The notes beneath the pieces were generated by a model. It ran no database searches, was not told the origin of the DNA, and was given only the letters and a program-made list of their open reading frames with translations. DNA of 41,458 nt from contig NC_057758.1 in assembly GCF_004010195.1 (NCBI RefSeq), positions 9,191,815-9,233,272 on the forward strand, given 5' to 3'. Source of the stretch: Chiloscyllium plagiosum (Eukaryota). Shown here one piece after another: positions 5,066 through 41,458 of this stretch. The position numbers and the translations under genes are program-made. Position 1 is the first letter of the stretch; each line of letters begins with the position of its first letter.

Positions 5066-5298
5066 CGTGGAAATATAAATGTTCTGACTTTGATATTGCC
5101 GGAATCTTCCCAAAACCCCAGTTCCATGTATTTTAATAAAACCAGAGCCGCTAGCAATTAGGTGCTTTTGCTTAACCACATTGTAGTTTAACCAATGAAA
5201 ACATCCATTGTCTACTTTTCTAACTGAAGTTCAGTGTTTATTGCCATCACCCGAGTATAAATAAGACAGAGTCCACTTTTGCCTTCTCTCTCTTACAG

Positions 5299-6195
5299 CA
5301 AATCTAGTGGCAATTGTGATCATATCCCAAGGAAAGTGCGGGATCTCCAAATGCACTACTCGTTACCTGGTGGCCATGGCACTAGCGGATCTACTGACGA
5401 TTATCACTGAGGTCATGATTATCCGAATCAATAGTTATTATTTCCCAATACCTTTTCTGAAACTGACCCCTGTTTGTAAAGTTAATTACCTCCTGGCTCG
5501 AATCTCAATGGACTGGTCAGTTTGGTTTACTGTTGCCTTTACTTTTGATAGACTTATTGCGATATGCTACCAGAAGCTGAAATCTAAATATTGCACTAAA
5601 AAAAACGCAACAATGGTTCTTGCAATAATCTGCGTATTTTTTAGTTTAAAAAATATTCCCATCTACTTTCGATTTGAGCCTTACCGAATAATTAATAACG
5701 TACCACTGTATTGTTCCAATAAACAAAGCTATTACACTGACCCAAGATGGATTGGATTTAGAGTGTTTGATAAGATTTTAACGCCATTGTTACCATTCGC
5801 TTTCATTCTGTTATTCAATGCTTTGACAGTTCGGCACATTTTAGTGGCTAGCCGAGTCCGTAAGGCTGCCCAAAGAACAGACCAAAGAACAGAATCAAAA
5901 TGACCCAGAAATGGGGAACAGACAGAAGTCTGTGATTTTACTTCTCGCTATATCATGCAGCTTTATAATACTGTGGCTTATGTATATTTTGTCTATTTTT
6001 AATGTTGATAACGGTTTAGATTATAATGCTGAATATATATTTGTGAAAGTAGCGTATATGTTGAGGAATTTATGTTGCTGCATAAACACATTAATTTATG
6101 TTGTGATTTTGCCCAAGTTCAGAGAGCAGTTGAAGAGCATGATGAAATATCCAATTACATCAATTATTAAACTAATTTCGAAGCGAAACAACTGA
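5299..6195 (+). pseudogene. GPR139/GPR142-like GPCR gene 1, exon 2 (TM1-TM7), one frameshift at ~5865
   Basis: Polypyrimidine tract and CAG| acceptor at 5297-5298. Motifs: YLVAMALADLL (TM2), TM3 Cys and FTFDRLIAIC, TPLLPF..ILLFNALTVRHI (TM5), DPEMGNRQKSVILLLAIS (TM6), CCINTLIY..KFREQL (TM7/H8). ORFs 5307-5903 and 5911-6195 are in different frames. Confidence 0.88.
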
Positions 6196-6446: not shown

Positions 6447-7710
6447 AACATCGAACTGCGAACAACACAGCGCAGAACAGGCCCTTTGGCGCTCTATGTT
6501 GCGTCGACCTGTGAACTATTCTCAGCCTGTCCCCCTACACTATCCCCAAATCATCTATGTACTTATCTAAGGATTGATTAAATCTCCCTCATGTGGCTGA
6601 GTTGACTACATTAGCAGGTAGGGCATTCTACGCCCTTACCACTCTGCGGAAGAACCTGCCTCTGACATCTGTCTTAAATCTATCACCCCTCAATTTGTAG
6701 TTATGCCCCTCGTACAAGCTGACGTCATCATCCTAGGAAAAAGACATTCACTGTCTACCCGATCTAATCCTCTGATCATCTTGTATGTCTCTATCAAATC
6801 CCCTCTTCTTGCCAATGAGCACAGGGTCAAGTCTCTCAGTGTTTCCTCATAACATCTTCCCTCCAGACCAGGCAACATCCTGGTAAATCTCTCTGCACCT
6901 TTTCCAAAGCTTCCACATCCTTCCTGTAATGGGGCGACCAGAACTGTACACAATACTCCAAGTGTGGCCACACCAGCGTTTTGTATAGTTGCAGCATGAT
7001 ATTGCGGTTCCGGAACTCAATCCCTCTACAAGTGAAACCTAACACATCGTATGCCTCCTTAACAGCACTATCCACCTGGGTGGCAACTTTCAGGGGTCTA
7101 TACACATGGACTCCAGGCTCCCTCTGTACATCCACACTACCAAGAATCTTTCCATTGACCCAGGACTCTGCCTTGCTGTTATTCCTCCCAAAGTGCATCA
7201 CCTCACATTTAGCATTGGACTCCATTTGCCACCTCTCAGCCCAATTCTGCAACCGGTAACATTCCCCCTGCAACATTCTTCCAAACTGTCCATTACTCCA
7301 CCGACTTTAGTGTCGTCTGCAAATTTACTAATCCATCCACCTATGCCTGCGTCTAAGTCTTTTATAAAAATGGCAAACAGCAGTGGTCCCAAAACAGATC
7401 CTTGTGGCACACCACTAGTAGCCGGACTCCAGGCTGAATATTTTCCATCAACCATCACTCACTGCCTTCTTTCAGAAAGCCAGATTCTAATCCAAACTGC
7501 TAAATCACCCCCAATTCCATGACTCTGCATTTTCTCCAACAGCCTACCATGTGGTACCTTATCAAAAGCTGTACTAAAGTCCATGTATACCACGTCAACT
7601 GCCCTACCCTCATCTACATGCTTGGTCACCTTCTCAAAAAACTTAATGAGACATGACCTGCCCTTGACAAAGCCATGTTGACCATCTCCAATCAAATTGT
7701 TGCTTGCTAG
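6447..7710 (-). mobile_element. CR1 LINE, RT domain to 3' tail (5' truncated)
   Basis: QHGFVKGRSC, DFSTAFDKVPH, GVPQGSVLGP, FADD, YCVQFWSP motifs on the minus strand, with the tail remnant AACATCGAAC at ~6447. Confidence 0.95.
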
Positions 7711-7711
7711 A

Positions 7712-9504
7712 TGAGGAATACGAGAATGATCAGGGAAAAGGTAGGGCCGATCAGGGATAGCGGAGGGAACTTATGCGTGGAGTCTGAGCAGATAGGGTAA
7801 GCCCTAAATGAGTTTTTTGCTTCGGTTTTCATTCACCTTGTTGTGAATGAAAACTTTGAGGAGTTGCGATACAGTCTTGACCAGATCAAAGTTGATGAAG
7901 TTGATGTGCTAAAAATTTTGGAAAATATTAAAATTGATAAGTTCCCAGGGCCAGACCAGATTTATCCTAGGCTGCTCTGGGAAGCGAAAAATGAAGTTGC
8001 TGAACGACTGTCGAGGATATTTGCTTCCTCACTCTCCACGGGGTCGTACTGGAGGATTGGAAGGAGGCAAATGTTGTTTCTCTTTTCAAGAAAGGTAATA
8101 GGAAAATCCCTGGCAATTTCAGACCAGTCAGTCTAACGTCTGTGGTCAGCAAAGTTTTGGAAAGAATTTTGAGGGATAGGATTTATGAATATTTAGCAAA
8201 GCATAATGTGATTAAAGGCAGTCAGCACGGCTTTATGAGGGACAGGTCATGCCTCACAAATCTAACTGAGTTCTTTGAGAAGGTGAGAAGACAGGTCGAT
8301 GAAGTTTGAGCAGTGGATGCGGTGCATATGATCTTCAGCATGGCATTTGATAAGGTTCCTTATGATCGGCTCATTTATAACATCAGGAAGTCTAGGATCC
8401 AGGGATCCAGATTTGGCTATCTGGATTCAGAATTGGTTGGCTGACAGAATGCAGAGAGTGGTTGTGGATGGGAAGTATTCTGCCCGCAGGTCAGTGTAAA
8501 GTGGGGTCCCGCAGGGCTCTGTTCTTGGGCCTCTGCTCTTTGTACTTTTTATAAATGACTTGGATGAGGAGGCTGAGGGGTGGGTTAGTAAATTTGCAGA
8601 TGACACAAAGATTGGAGGTGTCGTCGATAATATAGAGGGCAAATGCAGACTGCATGGCGACATAGACAGGATGCAGAGCTGGGCTCAGAAGTGGCAGATG
8701 GAATTCAACCTGGATAAATGCGAAGTGATGCATTTTGGAAGGTCGAACTCGAATGCTGAATATAGGATTAACGACAGGATTCTTGGCTGTGTGGAGGAAC
8801 AGAGGGATCTGGGTGGGCAAGTACATAGATCCCTCAAAGTTGCCAAACAAGTGGATAGGTTTGTTAAGAAAGTACATGGTGTGTTGGCTTTCATTAACAG
8901 GGGGATCGAATTTAAGAGCCGCGAGGTTTTGCTGCAGCTCTACAAGTCCCTGGTGAGACCACACTCGGAATATTGTGTCCGGTTCTGGTCGCCCTACTAT
9001 AGGAAAGATACAGAGGTTTTAGAGAGGGTGCAAAGAAGGCTTACCAGGATGCTGCCTGGACTGGAGAGCTTGCCTTATGAAGAAAGGTTGAATAAGCTTG
9101 AACGTTTCTCTCTGGAGAGATGGAGGCAGAGAGGAGATCTGATCGAGGTATACAAAATAATGAGTGGATTATATAGAACCAATAGCCAGAGACTTTTCCC
9201 CAGGCCAGGATTGACTGGTATGAGAAGTCATAGTGTGAAGATATTAGGAGGGAGGTATAAAAGAGACGTCAGAGGTAGGTTCTGAACGCAGAGAGTTGTG
9301 AATGCATGGAATGCGTTGCCAGCTGTGATGGTGGAAGCAGAGTCATTGAGACATTTAAGCAACTACTGGACATGCACATGGATAGCAGTGAGTTGAGGGG
9401 TGTGTAGGTTAAGTTATTATATTTTACATTAGGATTAATCTCGGCACAACATCGTGGGCCAAAGGGACAGTTCTGTGCTGTACTTTTCTATGTTCTATGT
9501 TCTA
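7712..9504 (+). mobile_element. CR1 LINE, ORF2 3' two-thirds with (TCTATGT)n tail
   Basis: PGPDQIYPRLL, SKFADDTKIGG, YCVRFWSP. A 241-aa open stretch at 8560-9285, ending in TTCTATGTTCTATGTTCTA. Confidence 0.95.
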
Positions 9505-15254: not shown

Positions 15255-15347
15255 TTGAGAGAGTGGTGCTGGAACATCTCAGCAGGTCAGGCAGCATCCG
15301 AGGAGCAGGAAAATCAATGTTCCAGTCAAAAGCCTTTCATCAGGAAT
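15255..15347 (-). mobile_element. Penelope-like terminal fragment with decayed hammerhead motif
   Basis: The minus strand reads ATTC-CTGATGA-A-AGGC-TTTT-GACT-GGAA-CATTGATTTTCCTGCTCCTCGGATGCTGCCTGACC. Same family as 23373-23606 and 31866-31960. Confidence 0.75.
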
Positions 15348-15399
15348 AAAACATACTGATTTTTGGAATTAGAGATTGGAATTGATTGGAATCTCTTTT

Positions 15400-18200
15400 T
15401 TTCAAATAGTTCGATTGGAACTGTTTTTGTCACGTGTGTCGAGGAAGGGCTCCTGACGCAATATGTAGATAGGCTGACTAGAGTATAGGCCGTATTGCAT
15501 TTGTTTCTTGGCAACGAACCATGCCAGATTTCAGATCTCTTGGTGGGGGAGCATTTCGGTGATAGTGATCACAATTCAATGACTTATGGAGAGGGATAGG
15601 AGCAGATAGTATGGGAAAGTATTGGATTATGGGAGGGAGAATTAGCGTGGTATTCGACAAAAGCTGGATTTCTAGATTAAGAACATGTTTTGTCTGGGAA
15701 ATGCATGTCGGAAATGTGGGGGTCCTTTAGGAAGCAGTTGCTGGTAGTGATGGATCGGTTTGTCCCACTGAGGCAAGGACGTAATGGTGAGTTGAAAGAA
15801 CCTTGGGTGATAAGACATGTGGAACATATCGTCAAGAAGAAGAAAGAAGCTTACTTCAAGCTGAGGAGGCAAAGATAAGACATGATTTTAGAGGGTTACC
15901 AGGTAGCGAATCAGGAACTGAGGAATAGTCTTCAGTGAAGGATTGAAGGATTGAAGGAAAACCCTCAGGAGTTATACACCTCTGTGATGAACAAGAGGAT
16001 GGCCAGAGTGAGTGTTGGGCCGGTCAAGGATAGTGGCGGGAGCTTGTACCTGGGGTCCGAGGAGATAAGGGAGATCCAATATGAATACTTTGCTTCAGTA
16101 CTCCCTCCTCAGAGGGACCTTGATGTTTCTGAGAACAGAGTGACACAGACTGAAATGCTAGAACAAGTTAATGTAAGGAATGAGGGTGTACTGAAAATAT
16201 TGTTAAACATAAAGGCCAATATAACCCCTGGGCCAGACTGGAGATACCCTGGTTTTTACCTCAAGCGAGGGAAGAGAGTGCTGCACCTTTTGCGTTGATC
16301 TTTGCATTCACACTGTCCACTGGATGAATGACAGATGATTGGAGGGTAGCAAATATTATTCCCTTTTTCAAGAAAAGGATTACTGATAATCCTGGAAAAT
16401 ACAGTCCCGTCAGTCTTCGGTCAGCTGTTGGCAAAATATTGGAAAGGGTTCTTAGTGACATAATTTATGATAATATAGAAAACCATAGTTTGATTAGACA
16501 TAGTCAGCACAGTTTTGTGAGGAGCAGGTCATGCACCGCAAACCTTATTGAATTCTTTGAAGATGTGACAAAATACAGTTGATGAAGGTGGCCCAGTGTA
16601 TGTGGTGTGTATTAATTTTATCAAGGCGGGTTGATAAGGCACCCCATGTTAGACTCATTCAGAATGTAAGGGGGTGAGGTGTGTGAAGTAATTTGGCTGT
16701 CTGTATACTGTATTGGCTGGCCCATGGAAGAGATAGAGTGGGGGTAGATGGGAAGTATTCAGCCTGGAGCTCAGTGACCGCTGGTGTTCCGCAGGGATCT
16801 GTTCTGGGAGCTCTGCTCTTTTTAATTTTTATAAATGATTTGGATGAGGAAGTGGGAAGGTGGCTTTGTGCATTTGCCAAAGACACAAATAGATGGTGGA
16901 TAGTATGAAGGGATGTTGTAGGATGCAACAGGACATGGAGAGCATGCCCCAATCCGTAGGGGTGGCGCGGTGGCTAAGTAGTTAACACTGCTGCCTCAGT
17001 GCATGAAGGACTCGTGTTCAATTCCATCCTCCAGCACCTGTCTGTGTGGAGTTTGCACATTCTCCCTGTGTCTGCGTGGGTTTCCTCCAGGTGCTCCGGT
17101 TTACTCCCACAATCCAAAGATATGAAGGTTAGGTGATTTGACCATGCTAAATTGTTTGGTGTTGTACAAGAATGTGTATGTTAGGGTAGATTGGCCATGG
17201 CAAACTGTCCCGTGGTGTCCAGGGATGTGCAGGTTCTCTGAATGGTCATTCTACATTGTCCATAGTGTTCAGGAATGTGTACGTGAGTGCGGTTAGGGGT
17301 TAAATGAAAGAGAATGGGTCTTTGTGGATTATTCTTTGGGGAACAGATGTGGTTTTGCTGAGCCATCGGACTCGTTTTCACACCGCAGGGATTCTATGAT
17401 GTGAGGATGCAGATTTGGGTTGTGAAGTGGCAGAAGGAATTCAAGCTGGAAAAGTATGAACATTTCTCTACAGACCATCGAATTTGAAAGTGGATTGCAG
17501 GGTTAAAGGCAGGATATTGGCATTGTGAAGGAACAGAGGGGTCTTGGGTTTCATGCCCATAGATCCCTTGGAGTTGTCACCCAAGCTGATCGAGCTGTTC
17601 AGAAGGCTTTTGATGTGTTGGCATCCTTAGCAGGGCGATTGAGTTTAACAACCGTGAGGTAATACTGCAGCTCTACAGAACCGTCGTTCGACCACACTTG
17701 GAATATTGTTTTCAGTTCTGGTCGCCTCATCATGGAAAGGACGTAAATGCTTTAGAGAGGGTGCAGAGGAGATTTACTAGGATGCTATCTGCACGGGAGA
17801 GCATTTTGACAAGAAAATTTAAAGGAGCGCGGCCTTTTATCATTGGAGACAGAGGAATGAGTGGTGACATGATAGAAGTGCACAAATGTTAAGAGGCATG
17901 GATAGACTGGATAGCCAGAGACTCTTTTTTTCCCAGGGCAAAAATGTCTTTCATGAGGGACATAATTTGATTGTAATTGGAGAAATATTAAGCGGAGAAG
18001 TCAGAAGTAGGTTCTTTTCACAGACAGAAGTGGCTGTGTTGCTTGCACCGCTCGCACTAGTAGTAAGGACTGGTACATTACGTACATTGAAGTGATTGGC
18101 ACCTGGAAGGTCGTACAATGAAGGGTATGTTCGTTAGTCTGATGTCAGAGTAGGATGAAAGGTCGGCACAACATCGGGGGCTGAAGAACCTGTACTGTTC
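15400..18200 (+). mobile_element. Decayed CR1 LINE ORF2 (late endonuclease to 3' tail), interrupted by a SINE
   Basis: WRVANIIPFFKK, PGKYSPVSL, SQHSFVRSRSC, GVPQGSVLG, YCFQFWSP. Multiple stops and frameshifts. Confidence 0.9.
16958..17400 (+). mobile_element. V-SINE (HE1-like) with three internal ~50-bp repeat units
   Basis: GGTGGCGCGGTGGCTAAGTAGTTAACACTG head, a near-consensus V-domain TGTCTGTGTGGAGTTTGCACATTCTCCCTGTGTCTGCGTGGGTTTCCTCCAGGTGCTCCGGTTT, and a GGGATTCTATGAT tail. Confidence 0.92.
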
Positions 18201-21430: not shown

Positions 21431-23467
21431 ACAAAAAAAAACATTTTTTGTTGTTCCTTGAAATAATCTGGAAGGAAAAGACATCCGTATCATCACTCAA
21501 TGTCAGACAGGCAAGCTGATAGTTTAATAACAGTTTGAGAGTGTTGGTGGTGACGCAGAGCCGGAGGGTGTCAGGAAACATCTGAAATTTAATGGCCTAG
21601 AGTCTGAGGATATTACACATGTAGCCCGCTTGTATAGTCAAGTATGAATTCTCAGGCTTGTCCAGAGAAAACAGTCCTGGCTCATAGAGGAAAATGACTG
21701 CAGGAGATTGTCCGGCTGTGGTTAGGTCAGTCAGAAACGATCCAGAAGTATGCAGCCACAGAGAACAAAATGGCTGGGGAGAAAGTTTGGAAGAGGATTT
21801 ATGCGGTCAACTTCGGGAATAATAACGATACCTAATCATTACAGCTAATTATGTTCTCGCTGATGACAATGGCTCAGGGATCGACAGGACTGGCAACTTA
21901 ATGCTCCAGGATGCAAAAGCGACAGGATTGATAGAAAGGGAGGCAAAGTCGGGTGGGGTGGAGGGGGTGTGTAGCATTTATGATAAGGCAAGACACTGTA
22001 CTGAGGGAGGCTATTCCCGGAAATACATCTGAGAAGTTATTTGGGTGGAACTGAGAAATAAGAAAGGGATGATCACCTTATTGGCATTGTGTTATAGACC
22101 CCTTAATAGTCAGAAGGAAATTGAGAAACGAATTTGTAAGGGTATCTCATCTATCTGTAAGAATAATAGGATGGTTATGGTAGAGGATTTTTACTTTCCA
22201 AACGGACACAGGTGCTGCCATGGTGTTAAGGGCTTAGTTGAAGACGAATTTGTTAAGTATGTGCAAGAAAATTTTCTGATTCAGTATGTGGATGTACCTA
22301 CTAGAGAAGATGCAAACCTTGACCTGCTCTTGGGAAATAAGGCAAGGCAGGTGACTGAGATGTCAGTGGGGGAGCACTTTGGGGCCAGAGACCATAATTC
22401 TATTTGTTTTAAAATAGTGATGGAAAAGGATAGACCAGATCTGAAAGTTGAAGTTCTAATTTGGGGAAAGGGCAATTTTGACGGTATTAGGCAAGAACTT
22501 TCAAAATCTGATTGGGGGCAGATGTTCACAGGTAAAGGGACGGTTGGAAAATGGGAATATTTCAGAAATGAGATAACGAGAATCCAGAGAAAGTATATTC
22601 TTGTTAGCTTGAAATGAAAGGCTGGTAGGTATAGGGAATGCTGGATGACTAAACAAATTGAGGATTTGGTTAAGAGAAAGAAAGAAGCATATGTCGAGTA
22701 TAGACAGGATAGATCGAGTGAATCCTTAGAAGAGTATAAAGGCAGTAGGTGGATACTTAAGAGGGAAATCAGGAGGGCAAAACGGGGGCATGAGATAGTT
22801 TTGGCAAATACAGTTAAGAGAAATCCAAATGGTTTTTACAAATACATTAAGGACAAAAGGGTGACTAGGCAGAGAACATAGCTCCTCAAAATCGACAAGG
22901 CGGCCTTTGTGTGAAACTGCAGGAGATGGGAGAGATACTAAACGAGTACTTTCTATCACTATTTACTGTGGAAAAGGACATGGAATAGATAGAATGTAGG
23001 GAAATGGATGGTGACATCTTGAAAAATGTTTTTCTTACCGAGTAAAAAGTGTTGGATGTCTTGAAACGCATAAAAGTGGATATATCCCCAGAACCTTATC
23101 AGGTGTACCTTAGAATTTTGTGGGAAACTAAGGAAGTGATTGCTGGGTCTCTTCCAGAAATATCTGTATCAGCAATAGGTAAGGTGCTGGAAGACTGGAT
23201 GTTGTCTAACGTGGTGCCACTGTTTAAGAAAGGTGACAAGGGCAAGCCGGGGAACAGTAGACCAGTGACCCTGACGTCGGTGGTGGCCAGGTTTTGGAGG
23301 GAATACTGAGGCATTTGGAAAGACAAGGACTGATTAGGGATAGCCAACATGGTTTTGTGCGTTGGAAATTATCGAGGTAAAAACAATGATGGCAGATGCT
23401 GGAAACCAGATTCTGGATCAGTGGTGCTGGAAGAGCACAGGAATTCAGGCAGCATCCGAGGAGCTTC

Positions 23468-23507
23468 GAAATCGACGTTTCGGGCAAAAGCCCTTCATCA
23501 GGAATTC
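23468..23507 (-). ncRNA. Minimal type-I hammerhead ribozyme motif (PLE-associated)
   Basis: GAAUUC-CUGAUGA-A-GGGC-UUUU-GCCC-GAAA-CG-UC^GAUUUC. The core is intact, stem II is 4 bp, stem III is the palindrome ACGU, and stem I pairs at 5 of 6 positions. Confidence 0.7.
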
Positions 23508-23511
23508 CTTT

Positions 23512-23549
23512 ATTCCTGATGAAGGGCTTTTGCCCGAAATGTCGATTTC
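23512..23549 (+). ncRNA. Second hammerhead motif (inverted copy, C-to-T change in stem III)
   Basis: AUUC-CUGAUGA-A-GGGC-UUUU-GCCC-GAAA-UG-UC^GAUUUC. Confidence 0.6.
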
Positions 23550-25695
23550 GAAACTCCTTGGATGCTGCCTGAACTGCTGTGCTCTTCCAGCACCACTAAT
23601 CCAAGAGCGTTGGAAATTATGTCTCCCAAACCTGATTGAGGTTTTTGAAGAAGTAACAAAGGGGATTGATGAGGGTAGAGTGGTAGATGTGATCTATAGG
23701 GACTTCAGTAAGGCATTCAGCAAGATTCCCCATGGGAGACTGGGTAACAAGTTTAGATCTCACAGAATACAGGGAGAACTCGCCATTTGGATACAAACTG
23801 GTTCAAACGTAGAAGAAAGAGGGTGTTGGTGGAGGGTTGTTTTTCATACTGGAGGCCTGATTCCAGTGGAGTGCTACAGGGATCGGCGTTGGGTCTTCTA
23901 CTTTTCACCATTTATATAAATAATTTGGATGTGAACATGAGAGGTATAGTTAGTGAGTTTGCAGATGACACCGAAATGGAAGGAACAGTGGACAGTGAGG
24001 AAGGTTACCTCCGATTCAACGGGATCTTGATCAGATGGGCCAATCGGCTGAGAAGTGGCAGATGGAGTTTAATTTAGGCAAGTGAAAGGTGCTCAATTTT
24101 GGGAAAGCACATCTTAGCAGGACTTGTACACTTAATGGTAAGGTCCTAGGCAGTGTGGCTGAACAAAGAGACCTTGGAGTGAAGGTTCATAGCTCCTTGA
24201 CCCTGGAGTAGCAGTAGATAGGATAGTGAAGAAGGCGTTTGGTATGCTTTCCTTTATTGGTCAGAGTATTCAGTACAGGAGTGGGAGGTCATGTTGCAGC
24301 TGCACACGGCATTGGTTAGGCCACTGTTGGAATATTGCGTGAAATTATGGTCTCATTCCTATCGGAAATATGTTGTGAAATGTGAAACGGTACAGAGAAG
24401 ATTTACAAGGATGTTGCCAGTGTTGGAGGATTTGAGTAAGCTAGGGCTGCATTTTCTGGAGCGTCGGAGGCTGAGGGTGACCTCATAGTTGTTGATAATA
24501 TCACCAGGGGCATGGATAGGTTAAATAGGCAAAGTCTTTTATCTGGGGTTTGGGAATCCAGAACTAGAGGGCATAGGTTTAGGGTGAGAGGAAAAAGGTA
24601 TAAAGGAGACCTAAGGGGCAACGTCTTCACACAGAGGGTGGTACATGTATTGAGTGAGCTGCCAGAGGAAGTGGTGGAAGCTGGTACAATTGCAACATTT
24701 AAAAGGCATCTGGATGGGTATATTAATAAGAGAGTTTTGGAGGGATATGGACCGGGTGCTGGCAGCTGGCAATGATTGGGTTGTAATATCTGGTCGACAT
24801 GGACAAGCTGGACCAAAAGGTCTGTTTCCGTGCTGTTCATCTATGTGACTCTATGACTCTATGGTTGGATGACTGAAGTAAATGCCTTCCAACACTCAAA
24901 GCAAGGGAGTAATCTGTCAAAAACATTACTTATCGGCGCAAAGTGAGGTTAGATAATTGACGGGTCCCAGTTCCGAAGTAAGAGCTCCTGAAATGTTATT
25001 CATCACTGTGAATGAGTCAGGGGAAATCTGTTTCCCAGAACCCTTATAGCAGTTCCCACGGTCTGAACAATTACTATGTTCTCGCTGGTACTTCAGGAGC
25101 TGTGAAAGTTGGATGAATCGCTTCCCACCTTACAGCATATGATACAGAAATGATTCTCTTCCAACATACTCTGGCTTTCTCATTTCTGAAACTGCATTTA
25201 CTACTGAACAGGCCAGGTGTTCATCTGAATCCTCTTCAAAGGACAGAACAGTTGTCAGATTTGACCCTACTGTGAGGTGTCACTTTTCATTCCATGTTAA
25301 AAATCCAATGAGTGATATTCTGATGCTGACGAATCCAATGTACATCACGTCTTCGGCTGGGAAATTCTTTTTGCTTCCTGACTAGGAATGTTCCCTTTCC
25401 AAAAACATGTGAAACATGCTTGAAGAAGGAAATAGTCACCATGGAAGTTCGTATCTTATATGTTATGGAACAGACTAGCCGTCATTAAAATATGCTAAGA
25501 AGGTAACTGAGTGCCCAGCCTTTTCTTGTTTGAAAGACAAATGTAACATATCGATACCAATGTAATGCGACTGATCAAGTGCTGTGCCACATTATACAAA
25601 ACAAAATTCACTTGAGTGAAATAGTTAAAATATAATCGAAAGGAATACGAATTTGAAATAACTTAACCCTATTGGAAACATAAGAATAATAGTCT

Positions 25696-31368: not shown

Positions 31369-32088
31369 TGTTATTGACCAGACCAGACACCTCACAATAG
31401 TTTAAGGCGGTACCCTAGACTCTAACATTTTCTTATTTCAAAGGCAGATGTGAGGTGTCTGTTACTGACGAATGTGACTGGTCAAACTACTCGACAAGAG
31501 GCAAGTCACAATTTATTTGAACATTGTCGTTAAAATACAATCAAAGAAAAAATAACTTAGAACAACTTAGCTGTGTTAGCAATTTAACAACATAATAGAT
31601 CCAATAACGACTACCAATTAAATGGTCCAACGAAGCAACACTTGGAATACGCGCCCCTTGTCAAACCAGTGACATTCAGACACAGCTTCTCACATGCAGT
31701 TCTCCACTCCAGGAGGAAAAAGATATGAAGAGAAAATCCAGCGAGAGTGGCAGTGAAATTCACTGAAGCATCTAACTCTATCCAGACTCCAATATATTCT
31801 GATGCTACTCGGAAATCTTAATCTGTGAGACCTGACCATACTCATTTAGGGTGCATTGAAAAGAGCCTGATGAAGGGCTTACGCCAGGAAAGTCGACTCT
31901 CCTGCTCCTCGGATACTGCCTGAACTGCTGCTCTTTTCCAGTGCCAGACTTGTCGACTCCGCATTTTAAGAAAAAGCCTCCAAGCTGTTTCATCAAGTGT
32001 CAACCTGCAGCCAGATAGAGACCTTTACCTTCTTATCTCACTTCAAATAAAGAACCTAATAATCTCTTAAAGCGACACCATCCTCAGA
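31369..32088 (-). repeat. 5' LTR of the Gmr1-like element
   Basis: Plus strand TGTTATTGACCAGACCAG...CTCTTAAAGCGACACCATCCTCAGA matches TGTTATGGAACAGACTAG...CTCTTAACGTGACAGTATCGTCACA at 25461-26277. AATAAA at 31517-31512. Confidence 0.8.
31866..31960 (+). mobile_element. Penelope-like terminal fragment with decayed hammerhead motif, inside the 5' LTR
   Basis: C-CTGATGA-A-GGGC-TTAC-GCCA-GGAAA-GTC-GACTCTCCTGCTCCTCGGATACTGCCTGAACTG. Confidence 0.75.
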
Positions 32089-32925: not shown

Positions 32926-33836
32926 TTAGATTTTAAAAGTTTTAACCAATATTTTCAGTGGATATTGTAAAACACTCTTTAACTCCTGCCTAAATTTTCT
33001 TTGGGTCCCAGCATAAATAAATGGGTTAATGGAGGAACTCAAAAGGAGAAGCATGAATCCGGCCTGTTGGAGAATAAACGTGGAATCACTGACATTCGAA
33101 CCTGTGGAATAAGTGACATGCGCAATTTGGACATTCAGGATCGTCACAAAATAAAGCAAATTTAACAGAATGAAATTGCCTGAGATAGCGAAAAGCAAAA
33201 CAATGGACATCCGCCGCTTCTCCATCTCTGGGTCAATCTGATGTTGTCCATTGTTCTGGATGCGGAGTCTTCGACGTGCTTTATTGGCTATCAGAATGTG
33301 TCTCACCGTCAATACATTGAGCAGTAAAATTAGAATAATTGGGAGACAAGGAGTTAAAATGGATCGTAACCAGTCATATGCAGTCCAGGCTAGTGACGTA
33401 TAATATATTTCTTTTATGACACAGAACCAAGGTACCCCATTAATTACGTACTGGGCTTCAAATTGAAAGTATTTGAAGACGTTTTTAAGGATGGCCAATG
33501 CAGAAACGATTCCTATCACCCACGCTGTCACGTTCGTTGTACAGTATTTCGTTTTCAAATTTTGACTAGAAATTGCCACAAAACGATCAAAGGTGAAAGC
33601 GACAGTTAACCAGACAGAGGTATCAATGGCGACAAAAATTAATACAATACGCACTGCGCACACTGGCGTTACAGACAGGTAACTGGATGGGAAGTAGACA
33701 GAAGCAATTCTGTTTAGTATTACAGCATTCAGCATGACGAGGAGATCTGTCACCGCCATGGACAGCAGATAATAGGTAACACATTCGGAAAGACCACATC
33801 TTCTTCGATACAGAACTATTACCACTGCTACATTCG
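32926..33836 (-). CDS. GPR139/GPR142-like GPCR gene 2, exon 2 (TM1-TM7, stop)
   Basis: Acceptor CTCCTCCCCCCTCTATTCCAG| at 33838-33837. Open frame with YLLSMAVTDLL, TPVC, FTFDRFVAI, PWFC, TPCLP..LLNVLTVRHI, DPEMEKRRMSIVLLFAIS, NPFIY..KFRQEL. Confidence 0.95.
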
Positions 33837-35342
33837 CTGGAATAGAGGGGGGAGGAGCGAATGGATGGAAGGAAAGGATAAAGGAGTTAGTGTTTCGATT
33901 CTCCATTTATCTGTTTTCTATAATACTGTTTGAACTGAATGCTTATAACTGCCAAAAAATGTTGTTTGCTTTTTGTTTTATCCTGTGGACAAGTATTGAC
34001 CAATTTTAACACCGTTATCCACGTTAAGTATATAACATATCAATAAGTGTATGGTACACAGTAGTCAAAGGAAAGAGGCCAAAGGAAAATAAAAATCGAT
34101 TAGACATCCACTCCAACACAGGACTATCAAGTCCACCAGAAAATTAACACAAAAACAGTAAAAGAAAATCTCTAGAAACAGCTGTTGTCGATAAATACTA
34201 AAACATCGAAGATGTGCAGAGAAAAACTACGTATGAAAAAAAAACTAATGCACTTAGGATGCAAGTATGTCATTTCCAGGATTAATTCAAACTGTTCACT
34301 CCTTGAAATGTGACTGCATACATTCTTATAGCTACCCTCATACTTTGGAAATGAACAAAACATGATGCTAAGTTCTTTTGCTCTTCAGTCACCAGAACAA
34401 GTACTGAGGGAAGCAAAAATAATTAAATGGAACATCAAGTAATGCATGTTAATGCACAGATGATCTTTGTGGATCCAAGGAGATGCATGAGAAAACGCAC
34501 AATGTCAACCTTATTTGATTGAACTAAACTGAAATGAGACTACTTAATTTTATTTGGCAGCAGTGTTTGACGTTGGCAATCCCACTGCAATTATAATTAT
34601 TCATAACCTTTCCTCTGTGTAAAAGTTGCAAGGTCTGTAAACATTCCTTTGCCTGTGCAGGACTCGAACCTCTTCAGCTATTATTACAGTCGGATATTCA
34701 GTGTCCATCTGCAACAATGCAACACTAGGTGCTGAGATCATGCTTGCAGAATAATCTCCCAATCTCTCCGCGTTACCCCCCCCCCCCCCCCCCCCCCCCC
34801 CGCTATTATCATAAAACAAAGCATAAAAATTTCTATTTCCTGATTAGGTTATCAGTGTTAGATTTGAACTACTATCTTTAATGGATATTTGTAATTGAGC
34901 ATTATGAATTACATATTAGAGATTCCACCAGTTTTGGTTCTTCATCTAAGATGAGGAAAATGGTGGTGTTGTGAAAAGGCTTGCCCCGTGGTAGTGACAG
35001 AGGAAACTCCACAATCAACGGTCGAATACTTGGACACATCATCAACAGTTAACACTGAAGAAGAACCTGTGAATTGGGAGAAACATCCCACTCTTCAGTC
35101 AAGGTCAACTGAAACGTTATCTCTCCCCAACCCCCCCCCCCCCCGACTCTCTCTCTCTCTCACACATTCTATCTCTCTCCCCCTTTCTCTCTCTCTCTCT
35201 TACTATTTGTCAAAAGTGCCGTGCTTAATACTGTCACCTTAGGAAATTCGTTCATTTATTCTGCGGGAATTATTCATTGGTGAAAGCCAATCGATTTTGA
35301 ATCAATTGCTGGCATAATTGTGCTGTGAAGATCAGTGGCACT

Positions 35343-36352
35343 TGTTATGAAGGTTTGGGTGTACCTTTAAGAGAATAAAAAGCAGCCGATCGACTGGACA
35401 GCATTAATATCTATAACACAACAATGTACATAACACTGGGTTGAACAACTCGAGTAGTTCGTTGCCTGGAGACAAAAACAAATTCGAATCAGGCCAATCA
35501 GTTTTAATTATTCCCCGATAAAAAATACCAATTTCCAATCAAATTTGAATTGAGTATTTTGACAATCTTAAAAGCCAATAACACAATCCGATGCTCTGGA
35601 GGATAAGACCAGGTGAAAAGTTAACAGTTGAGAGGAGAACTGCTCCGACCCAGCATGTGAACAGACTACTTGAAATTAGTTCTCTCTTAAAAGTCCCTTT
35701 TCAATCAGTAACCCACAACACAGAAATTCCTATCAAGGAGAAAAGAAGACATAGGAAGATCAGAAGATAAGAACCTCCAGCTGCCTGGTTTTGAGATAAT
35801 AAGTGTTCTTTTGTAAATTGTATTTGGGAGTTTTATTGGACTAGTTTTAGAGAAGGGAACTAAAGATTGGTTAGAGAAAGAAATTGCAAATACTGGTTAG
35901 TCAGTTATTCTCTGTTATTACAGCATTGAGCTGTAATAAAATTGTTTATTTTTTACTTTAAATATTTTTTGGCCACACGATTTTTACAGATTACTGCATG
36001 GGATAAATCGTTCCTATATTGCTGATTTAAGTTAAAGTAGATACATTGTGGAAACAGGCCCTACGGCCCAACAAGTCCACACCGACCAGCAACACACCCA
36101 GACCCCATTCTCCTACACCTAACACGACAGGCAATTGAGTTCGGCCAATTTACCCAACCTGCACAGTTTTGGACTGTGGGAGGAAACTGGAGCACACCCA
36201 CAAAGACACAAGGAGAATGTGCAAACGCCACACAGAGAGTCACCTGAGGTGGGAATTGAACGCGGGTCTCTGGCGCTGTGAGATAGCAATGCTTACCACT
36301 GTGCCACCGTGTAGGACGGTCCTTCCCCCCCCCCCCCCCCCGTGTCGTAACG
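35343..36352 (+). mobile_element. Solo LTR in the gene-2 intron (interrupted by a SINE)
   Basis: Termini TGTTATGA...TCGTAACG (imperfect inverted repeat), 4-bp TSD CACT (35339-35342 / 36353-36356) and an internal AATAAA at ~35935. The start GGTGTACCTTTAAGAG resembles the start of the Gmr1-like LTR. Confidence 0.7.
36038..36311 (-). mobile_element. V-SINE (HE1-like)
   Basis: Minus strand CACGGTGGCACAGTGGTAAGCATTGC..GTTCAATTCCC..TTTGCACATTCTCCTTGTGTC..CTCCCACAGTCCAAAA. Confidence 0.9.
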
Positions 36353-38342: not shown

Positions 38343-38898
38343 CAGGGGTCGGGAACCTATGGCCTTAAGGCCACATGCAGCCTTCTAGGCCATTGGGTAT
38401 GGCCTTTTGAATGAATCCAAATTTTGCAGAATAAATCTTTTATTTTTTATTAATATGCTTTTTTTAGTCCTTTATTATTTTTATTTTAATCTTAACATTA
38501 ATGTATTTAAAATACCACAGAGTAAAAGAAAATTCAACGAAATGATCCTCACAGACTGACCGCCGCAATTTTAAAAATTGATAATTCATAAGGATTATTT
38601 CGACACCTGCTATGCTCATGATTTAGTTATAATGTGACTCTAGAATGTACGTTATCTTCCCCGCCTGACTGTCGCCATTACCGCCCGAGGCTAGTTGGTG
38701 AGAGCCTGTGGGTATCCAGTACGCCAGTGTCTATCAACCTATGACAACAGTGCACGTGATTTTCCATTTGAAATGAAATTTGAGAATAGTTACACAGTCT
38801 AACCGTATCGACATTTATATAATTGAAGTTTCTTCGATGCGGCCTTACTAGATTACAACTAACATAATGTGGCCTTCCAACATGAAAACTTTCCCCAG
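38343..38898. mobile_element. Non-autonomous hAT (Charlie-like) DNA transposon / MITE, right TIR damaged
   Basis: Begins CAGGGGTCGGGAACCT after GTCTAAGG. Subterminal (T)GCGGCC/TGGCC motifs at both ends and an AT-rich interior. Ends AAAACTTTCCCCAG. Confidence 0.7.
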
Positions 38899-39540
38899 GA
38901 GTTAGATGGGGTGAAATTTTTTAAGTGCATTCAGGAAAACTTCCTCAAGAAGTATATTGAGGGTCAAACTCGGGAATGGCCAAACCTCGAATTACTATTG
39001 GGGAATAGTGCAGGACAGGCGATGGAAGTGACAGCCGTGGAGCACTTTGGGAGCAGTCACCATTGTTCTATTAATTTTGAAATAGATATGGAGTGGGACA
39101 AGCCTGTTTCACAGGTTCAATTTCTAAACTTGGGCAAGTCAAGATTTCAGGGGTTGATCGGAGTAGTTTATTTGCAGACAAAGGAACCTCTTGCAAGTGG
39201 GAAGCCTTTGAAAGTGAATAGCTAGTACTAAACATCTATGTGTTGCTGAGAGGGCGAAGGGCAAGGTTTGTAGGAATAGGGAACCCTGGATGACAAGAGA
39301 TATTTAGGCTTTGACCAGAAATAAAGAAGGAGCCACAGCTCTGGTAACGACAGCAGAGATAAAGGAAATCCCCAGAGGTGTTTACACAATAATGGAGTTT
39401 ACTGAAGAATGAAATTAGGGGAACGAAATGGGGGCGTGTGATAGCATTCGCTGAGAAGATGAGGGTGAATGTAAAGAGGTACTTGAAATATATTAAAGAA
39501 AACAAAAACTTGAGACAGAAACCTTCCGAGATGTAGAAGA
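38899..39540 (+). mobile_element. CR1 ORF2 fragment (late endonuclease/linker)
   Basis: FFKCIQENFLKKYIEGQTR..LELLLGN..HFGSSHHCSI. Confidence 0.8.
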
Positions 39541-39559
39541 AAGGATAGCAATGATGATA

Positions 39560-41325
39560 TTTGATCAGAGTAAGAGTAACAGGGTACTTGTTATGGGGGA
39601 CTTTACATTTCCAAATAAGACTGGGAATACTATCGTTCGAAGACTTTATTTGGGTCAGTTTTTGTCTAATGTGTGCAGGAAGGTTTCCTGACAAAGTCTG
39701 TAAACAGGCCAAAAGGGGCAAGGCCACATTGGATTTGGTGCTGGGTCATGAACCCGGCTGGTTGTTAGATTTGGAGGTAGGTGAGCACTTTGACTGTAAA
39801 AACAATTCGGTTATGTTTACTTTAGTGATGGAAAGGGACAGCTATATACCACATGCCAAGAACTATAGCTGGGGTGAAGGCAATTATAATGCAGTTAGGA
39901 AAGAGTTAGGATGCACAGCATGGCAAGGAAACTGCAGGGGTTGGGCGCAATTGAACTTTGGAGCTTAGTCAAGGAACAACTACAGCGTGCCTTTGGTAAG
40001 AATGTACCTGTCAAGCAGGGAGGAAGTAGTCGAACGAGGGAGCCATGGTTTACTAAAGAAGTTGAAGCTCTTCTCAAGAGGAAGAAGAAAGCTTATGCTA
40101 GGATGAGATGCGCAGACTCAGGGAACTTGAGACTGACACGTTAGCCAGGAAATACCAAAAGAGAGAGTTAAGAACAGCCGGGAGGGAACATAAGACGTCA
40201 TTGGCAGAGAGGATCATGGAAAACCCTCAGGTATTCTTTCGTTATATCAGGAATAAAAGAATGACGAGAGTGAGATAAGGATCAAAACAGGATAGTAGTG
40301 GGAAGTTGCTCGTGGAGTCCAGTCCGAGGATATAGGGAAGTGCTAAGTCAACATTTTTCGTCAGTAACGAGTATTGAGGAGAAAGACAATCTTGTTGACC
40401 AGACCGCTGGTATACAGGCCACTGAAAGTGGTGGGATTAAGGTTCACAAGGAGGAGGTGTTAGCTATTCTGGAAAGTGTCAAAATAAATATGTACCCTCG
40501 GCGAGATGGGCATGTATTCTACAATTCTTTGGGAAGCCAGGGAGAAGACTGCGGAGCCTTTGCCTTGAATCTTAATGTCGTAATTGTCCACTGGAAAAGT
40601 GCCATAAGATTGGAGGATAACAAACGTTGTCCCCTTGTTCAAGGAGAGTAGAGACAACCCTGCTAATTATAGACCAGTGAGCCTTACTTGGGTTTTGGGT
40701 AAAGTGTTGGAAAAGGTTCCCAGAGACAGGATTTATAATTAACTAAAAATGAATACGTCGATTAAGAATAGACAACACAGTTTTTTGAAGGCTATGTCGT
40801 GACTCACCAACCTTACTGAATTCTTTGAGAAGGTGACTAAACAGGTGGATGAGGGTAAAGCGGTTCATGTGGTGTATATAGATTTCAGTAAGGTATTTGA
40901 TAAGCTTTCCCAGGTAGGCGATTGCACAAAATATGGAGTGATGGAATTGAGGCTGATTAAGCTGTTTAGGTAAGAGGTTGGCTCGCTGAAAGAAGACAGA
41001 GACTAGTGGCTGATGGGAAATGTTCATCCTGCAGTTCTGTCAGTTCTGTTAGTAGTGGTGTATCTGTTTTGGGCCCACTGTGATTGACCGTTTTATAATT
41101 GACCTGGATGAGGACTTAGAAGGAGGGGTAAATAAAATTGTAGATGACACTCTGGTTGGTGGAGTTGTAGACAGTGTCGAAGGATATTGCAGGTTACAGA
41201 GGGACATAGATAAGCCACAGAGCTGTGCTAAGAGGTGGCAAATGGATTTTAAGGTGGAAAAGTGTGAGGTGATTCACTTTGGAAGGAGCAACAGGAATAC
41301 AAAGTACTGTGCAAATGGTAAGATT
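39560..41325 (+). mobile_element. Decayed CR1 ORF2 (endonuclease to RT)
   Basis: VMGDF, ATLDLVLGHEPG, NYRPVSL, DFSKVFDK, IVDDTLVGG, KCEVIHFGRSN. Confidence 0.9.
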
Positions 41326-41458
41326 GTTGTGGTTCTGTTCGCCGAGCTGGAAATTTTTGTTGCAAACGTTTCATCCCCTGTCTAGGTGACATCCTCAGTA
41401 CTTGGGAGCCTCCTGTGAAGCGCTTCTGTGGTGTTTCCTCCGGCATTTATAGTGGCCT
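41326..41458 (-). mobile_element. Penelope-like element terminus (pLTR), third family; continues beyond the window
   Basis: Interrupts the CR1 abruptly. The minus strand has a TATA-like CTATAAAT followed ~45 nt later by a hammerhead motif. Confidence 0.7.
41362..41401 (-). ncRNA. Minimal type-I hammerhead ribozyme motif
   Basis: GUA-CUGAGGA-U-GUCACCU-AGAC-AGGGGAU-GAAA-CG-UU^UGC. Core intact, 6/7-bp stem II, ACGU palindromic stem III, 3-bp stem I. Confidence 0.65.

Follow-up and report, generated by a model that had tools for sequence, protein, structure and literature searches.

We analysed a stretch of 41,458 nucleotides of the Chiloscyllium plagiosum genome (contig NC_057758.1, positions 9,191,815 to 9,233,272 of the forward strand). 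This whole stretch is called the window, and positions are counted from its first letter. Inside the window, a decayed long interspersed nuclear element (LINE) is interrupted by an insert of 234 bp (23373-23606), which is flanked on both sides by a perfect 14-bp direct repeat. Two inverted arms, each opening with a minimal hammerhead ribozyme motif, meet head to head within the insert. The insert was very probably produced by one integration of a Penelope-like retrotransposon (Penelope-like element, PLE) of the endonuclease-bearing kind, and would consist of two 5'-truncated hammerhead ends of which one carries a tail and the other is tail-less. This anatomy matches an insertion pattern already published for PLEs (PMC3846280, PMC8557442). 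The features of the locus are as follows.

22033..24775, plus strand: second open reading frame (ORF2) of the decayed host LINE, approximate extent, from ORF pieces, paralogue identity and a weak RVT_1 match
23359..23372, plus strand: left copy of the target-site duplication (TSD), 14 bp, from the sequence repeat and the continuity of the host frame
23373..23413, minus strand: one-sided extension of 41 nt that prolongs the left arm at its 3' end (putative PLE 'tail'), without counterpart on the right arm and well covered by family reads
23414..23505, minus strand (sense): left arm, a putative 5'-truncated PLE end (stub of the pseudo-long terminal repeat, pLTR), beginning 4 nt before the hammerhead core
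23470..23505, minus strand: minimal type-I hammerhead, from the descriptor match, core from 23501, predicted cut after 23474
23506, no strand: one extra base at the head-to-head junction, probably untemplated or mutated, the contigs of run X1 fitting from 23507
23507..23606, plus strand (sense): right arm, a putative 5'-truncated, tail-less PLE end, beginning 9 nt before the core
23512..23547, plus strand: second minimal hammerhead, from the descriptor match, core from 23516, predicted cut after 23543
23607..23620, plus strand: right copy of the TSD, 14 bp, from the sequence repeat

Results

The 14-bp repeat is a true target-site duplication. Its two copies (23359-23372 and 23607-23620) are identical at 14 of 14 positions, and a repeat of this kind is expected by chance at about 7e-9 per placement, or 2e-5 across 2500 placements. 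The host frame reads QHGFV-RWKL to the left of the insert and resumes as RWKL-CLPNLIEVFEEV to the right, collinear with a paralogue at 8004-8309. The MAFFT alignment of the flanks opened no gap at the insert, and its local flank columns only were used. In addition, two joints in paralogous LINE contigs (among the 15 of 429 joints listed) span the insertion site and are shorter by 248 and 247 bases. The low chance value, the collinear frame and the shorter paralogous joints together establish the duplication, and the insert and its perfect TSD stand as they were first described. Both TSD copies carry T at 23618, where 22 of 25 RNA reads carry C, which suggests that the duplication copied a base of an already diverged LINE. 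Among the alignment rows listed, neither an empty orthologous allele nor a piece bridging the insert was found.

The original prediction called the host a CR1 element. That it is a decayed LINE reverse transcriptase is borne out: 35 of 55 amino acids of the right flank are identical to a paralogue in the window (7462-7770), and a profile scan of 8 stop-free ORFs of the window gave an RVT_1 match on the host piece at 23760-24074 (E=0.0015, below the cut-off) and clear matches on the paralogues. The LINE is putatively of the CR1 type.

The arms (23414-23505 and 23512-23603) agree at 86 of 92 positions, with 6 mismatches, and meet 5' to 5'. The two inverted arms of about 92 bp that had been proposed are thus real; the symmetry implied by that description is not, since the left arm is 41 nt longer and the final 3 nt of the right arm are unmatched in the left. 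The 6-nt spacer assumed between them also changes its meaning. In run X1, 145 contigs match from 23507 on, and the sequence that they have in common upstream of this point (agreement 0.6) is a different one. Of the six spacer bases, five are therefore probably native upstream sequence of the right arm, and 23506 is probably the sole extra base between the arms. Each arm thus holds sequence that the other lacks, the tail on the left and the five upstream nucleotides on the right, and both target 3' ends run into antisense element sequence.

Among the loose ends of run X1 at 23507, one subfamily has, some 13 nt upstream of where the arm begins, a stretch rich in pyrimidines and then CAG, resembling a splice acceptor; the upstream consensus of the other subfamily has no such AG. 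In Penelope of Drosophila virilis, the end of an intron coincides with helix I (PMC4209133).

The long inverted repeat and its TSD could also recall a DNA transposon of the MITE kind (miniature inverted-repeat transposable element), or a solo copy that was later duplicated in inverted orientation or hit by a second insertion. Such a history, in which the insert is not a product of retro-insertion, is highly improbable. The inverted repeats are not terminal, as those of a MITE would be, because of the 41-nt overhang on the left; a single TSD encloses both arms; solo one-arm relatives exist; and the hammerhead and the tail are traits of PLEs.

A descriptor of the minimal-hammerhead consensus, taken from the supplement of Cervera and de la Pena 2014 (PMC4209133), matched exactly twice in the whole window, at 23501 (minus) and 23516 (plus), and in none of 200 first-order Markov control sequences. 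A PLE-type minimal hammerhead therefore opens each arm, as had been claimed, and the cuts predicted after 23474 (minus) and 23543 (plus) were correctly placed. Helix I is marginal, with 2 contiguous pairs only. Helix III is palindromic as described, except that the palindrome is degraded in the right arm by a CpG-type C>T change (T at 23540). The Rfam scan proposed as a check did not recover the motif: over the whole window at E<=1 it returned 2 matches, neither of them a hammerhead. A mir-2007 match (32 bits against a gathering score of 100) was rejected, as it merely reflects the hairpin.

As a monomer the hammerhead is marginal, the hammerhead-constrained fold of the left arm having -5.3 kcal/mol against -15.4 kcal/mol for the minimum free energy structure. 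In the computed structure, the insert forms a single hairpin over its whole length (-177 kcal/mol, z -24), within which the probability of stem II is 0.0 on both strands. This agrees with the expectation that an inverted partial repeat would form a hairpin competing with ribozyme folding. Given the 5'-to-5' arrangement of the arms, transcription of either strand would reach the antisense arm before the sense arm, and the antisense arm would pair with the emerging ribozyme. To judge from the sequence, each strand would have one sense ribozyme and no second sense copy with which to form a dimer. The palindrome is therefore probably dead as a ribozyme.

The raw RNA run came from an unsuited library. 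Only 33 of its 1,957 aligned reads were at least 99% alike, and it is therefore silent on this locus and on cleavage; no pile-up of read beginnings or ends was seen in it. In the same run (X21), 28 A>G and 20 T>C places were counted over 23190-23790, against 12-14 and 11-14 in the DNA runs. This excess could reflect editing of family hairpins or a mere mix of other copies.

The arm belongs to a family of very high copy number in three organisms. Four runs were aligned to 23190-23790 at 88% likeness, namely the raw RNA run (organism A) and a DNA contig set from each of organisms A, B and C. The DNA runs gave 66,405, 60,368 and 73,430 aligned contigs and the RNA run the 1,957 reads, the LINE flanks being included in these counts. 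Behind 23505, the four runs had 528, 473, 465 and 287 loose ends, with a consensus that opens with the same four letters in all of them and an agreement of 0.33-0.51. Many copies therefore extend beyond the arm on its upstream side, as parts of a longer element, and other flanks are mixed in with them. The loose-end counts were also considered as a sign of a hot 5' boundary at 23505. This was rejected because any copy running further upstream also goes loose there.

The junctions between arms vary. Of the 429 joints, 15 were listed; 13 of these connect the left arm with the right arm, each at a different pair of places, and the 9 centre joints among the 12 of 500 between-letter rows listed all differ from each other and from this copy. 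A copy with exactly the present junction matches the reference flat, yields no joint row and is absent from these counts. The original prediction regarded the insert as a discrete retrozyme-like unit, that is, a non-autonomous palindrome, retrozyme- or MITE-like, which is transcribed whole and re-inserted by a PLE enzyme. We consider this unlikely and favor a mirror half made anew at each insertion, because copies extend upstream and the listed centre joints all differ. Beyond this wide variation, the centre of the insert is not spanned by any of the 24 pieces listed out of 195,410, and no tandem array is present. Each strand would have a single sense ribozyme buried in a hairpin, and a 92-bp hairpin would probably be a poor template for reverse transcriptase. 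On the other side, the insert is clean and bounded by a TSD, pLTRs alone can mobilise cargo in trans (PMC3846280), non-autonomous PLEs exist (PMC8557442), and the depth at some of the listed junctions suggests several copies, while same-junction copies are invisible to the count. The insert has no coding capacity of its own, so that the enzyme came from elsewhere, as was originally supposed.

The description of the insert as young was overstated. RNA reads differ from this copy at 23390 (166 of 171), 23391 (170 of 171), 23441 (250 of 271) and 23553 (103 of 107), and these private changes, together with the 6 differences in 92 between the arms, indicate a copy that is younger than the host LINE and not brand new. 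At 23419, which faces 23598 in the other arm, 183 of 281 RNA reads carry the right-arm allele, and both alleles look common in the family. Most family reads also differ from this copy in a block of 5-6 nt just 3' of the cut site (23465-23469 and 23548-23553), and this copy belongs to a minority subfamily. The block could lengthen helix I by pairing with the bases that natively precede the right arm.

Two older relatives of the arm lie elsewhere in the window, both found by sequence comparison.

15262..15350, minus strand: older solo copy with one arm and a degraded hammerhead, identity about 81%
31866..31941, plus strand: older solo copy with one arm and a degraded hammerhead, identity about 78%

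A TSD or an inverted partner was looked for at both solo copies, and neither was found. Pattern scans of viral, metagenome and prokaryote genome contigs gave no match. An 18-nt pattern hit five viral loci (L001-L005), which are probably chance matches. Among the titles and abstracts listed in literature searches, none described the family in a cartilaginous fish; Repbase and Dfam may well contain it.

One contig of run X1 links the LINE near 23713 to the arm tail end at 23392 and is probably another insertion of the family, at a different place in a paralogous LINE. Further decayed LINE copies, in both orientations and 64-72% alike, lie at 6762-9283, 15985-18015 and 38863-41385, with RVT_1 matches on two pieces. 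A repeat of about 190 bp, SINE-like (short interspersed nuclear element) in size, occurs three times at 72-77% likeness (912-1097, 16958-17154 and 36132-36310). The window also contains two genes of the rhodopsin family of seven-transmembrane receptors (Pfam 7tm_1), at 5265-6195 (plus strand, E 7e-15) and 32926-33906 (minus strand, E 3e-19). The latter has an open frame of 326 amino acids. The former is split over two frames (5265-5903 and 5845-6195) and is therefore probably a frameshifted pseudogene.

Discussion

The insert combines several traits of endonuclease-bearing PLEs. It has the minimal hammerhead of the terminal repeat (with a marginal helix I of 2 bp), a 5'-truncated copy inverted head to head, a tail at one end (41 nt, where 30-40 are expected) and a TSD of the variable-length type (here 14 bp) around the whole unit. 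On the rows listed, variable 5' truncation and the upstream extension of other copies agree as well. In rotifer PLEs, head to head is the most frequent arrangement of inverted pLTRs, the TSDs have 8-10 bp and one pLTR bears a tail of 31 bp (Arkhipova et al. 2013, PMC3846280). Craig et al. 2021 (PMC8557442) report for PLEs a neighbouring 5'-truncated copy in inverted orientation and, often, a 30-40-bp tail at one end, and the same pattern is given in brief in a curation guide (PMC8969392) and by Schostak et al. 2008 (PMC2377424). The present insert resembles these complex insertions in its head-to-head truncated ends, one-end extension and single enclosing TSD. In contrast to the cited examples, both of its arms are only about 100-130 nt long without an ORF body, its TSD has 14 bp (8-10 in rotifers) and its tail 41 nt. 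An ATG at 23455 opens a frame of 27 codons that runs from the arm through the tail, similar to the frame of Adineta vaga PLEs, in which 12 amino acids lie in the pLTR and 22 with the tail.

Several observations weigh against a PLE origin or limit what can be drawn from it. Protein searches with the 40- and 44-amino-acid open frames of the left arm, which are very short queries, found nothing, and a motif scan of the six frames of the window showed no GIY-YIG-like string. No link of the arm to a parent element with a single ORF for reverse transcriptase and GIY-YIG endonuclease was found, the upstream loose ends being limited to 30 letters, and the low agreement among these ends shows that several continuations are mixed with unrelated flanks. 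The joint rows listed are biased to 23464 and 23554, where another subfamily stops matching. Some single joints have a summed depth of about 190-250, against 13 for a contig of the locus-specific flank (in X1, a different run), and some junctions may therefore recur. Finally, the argument that two templates were copied is weak, as it turns on a single transition at a variable site, which may have mutated afterwards.

If the insert is a PLE insertion, the question is how its mirror arm arose. The route we consider most likely, with about even confidence, is double priming. The PLE protein would nick both target strands 14 nt apart, and each free 3' end would prime reverse transcription on PLE RNA, one at the start site that yields the tail and the other some 40 nt from it, at the start site that yields no tail. 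The two cDNAs would stop just upstream of the hammerhead and would then be end-joined with one filler base, so that the palindrome would be a by-product of insertion. We prefer this route because the Poseidon protein cuts and extends both strands, because both target 3' ends precede antisense sequence, and because each arm holds unique sequence. The arms also differ at 23419/23598, a site with two common alleles, which lends slight support. The Poseidon protein of Anolis carolinensis is instructive here (Frangieh et al. 2024, PMC11167929). In addition to cutting and extending both strands, it has two internal start sites of reverse transcription, and its tail is the stretch between them. Two such starts downstream of the hammerhead would likewise yield one tailed and one tail-less end. 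The Poseidon hammerhead was dispensable for insertion in vitro, and that study found no RNA-seq ends at the cut. The Poseidon ORF begins at helix II, whereas in the present element an ATG within the core opens a frame of only 17 codons.

The same PLE origin is compatible with another route, in which the mirror arm was produced by fold-back self-priming of an antisense RNA or of the first cDNA, through a 6-nt loop, one end being trimmed on resolution so that the tail stayed on one side. Given a PLE insertion, we rate this as a reasonable but less probable course. Arkhipova et al. proposed fold-back from palindromes at inverted junctions (PMC3846280), and a tail formed as a product of endonuclease resolution has been suggested (PMC8557442). 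The junction described here, which contains a 10-bp palindrome at 23500-23509 and closes a loop of 6 nt, would permit it. However, if a target-primed cDNA simply snapped back, sequences unique to each arm would not be expected unless there was additional trimming or the template was antisense, and at 23419/23598 the arms carry different alleles, both of which look common in the family.

The hammerheads themselves resemble the minimal hammerheads of metazoan PLEs (PMC4209133). They share the CUGANGAH core with an extra base before helix II, the G10.1-C11.1 pair, GAAA, a loop-less palindromic helix III and a U-rich upstream sequence. They are unlike them in a helix II of 4 bp, a helix I of 2 contiguous pairs and motifs that start 15 nt apart, the dual motifs on opposite strands in that study being 100-700 bp apart. 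The same study found thousands of solo minimal hammerheads in vertebrates, with no cleavage of monomers and low cleavage of dimers; a search of one of its supplement files found no entry for shark, Callorhinchus or Leucoraja.

According to a review (PMC6765202), Lunse et al. reported cleavage in dimers. Retrozymes, with which the insert was originally compared, are by definition tandems of units arranged head to tail; every unit has its own ribozyme, and they are expressed in circular form (PMC7229834; bioRxiv 10.64898/2026.07.22.740005). The insert is similar to non-LTR (non-long terminal repeat) retrozymes in being non-coding, PLE-related and a few hundred bases long, with a type-I hammerhead. 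It differs from them in that its two copies are inverted and not in tandem, each strand having a single minimal ribozyme in sense orientation, and its 2 contiguous helix I pairs contrast with the 6-bp helix I and loop contacts of the canonical type-I hammerhead of retrozymes.

The junctions of the family may also record how far reverse transcription proceeded. One joint of run X10, which belongs to the biased rows listed, links 23464 to 23512 with 9 letters between at a depth of 223, so that the arm ends at 23473. This is the first base of the predicted 3' cleavage product, and several other listed joints start about 1-14 nt further in. Tentatively, and with more doubt than confidence, we suggest that such stubs might be a fossil record of double priming near the 5' end of the RNA, in which the cDNAs ran off either at the transcript start, as in both arms here, or at the hammerhead cut. 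If this is true, a census of junctions would provide genome-scale in vivo evidence that the minimal hammerheads of PLEs cut, and would decide between double priming and fold-back. In the excerpts of PMC4209133, PMC11167929 and PMC8557442, both questions are left open.

As a single locus, the insert is ordinary, apparently a dead PLE stub inside a dead LINE. Hairpins of this kind could supply the host with much double-stranded RNA. The insert is of value as one example from a very large family, the junctions of which can be used to test the origin of PLE inverted ends and tails and the cutting of hammerheads in vivo.

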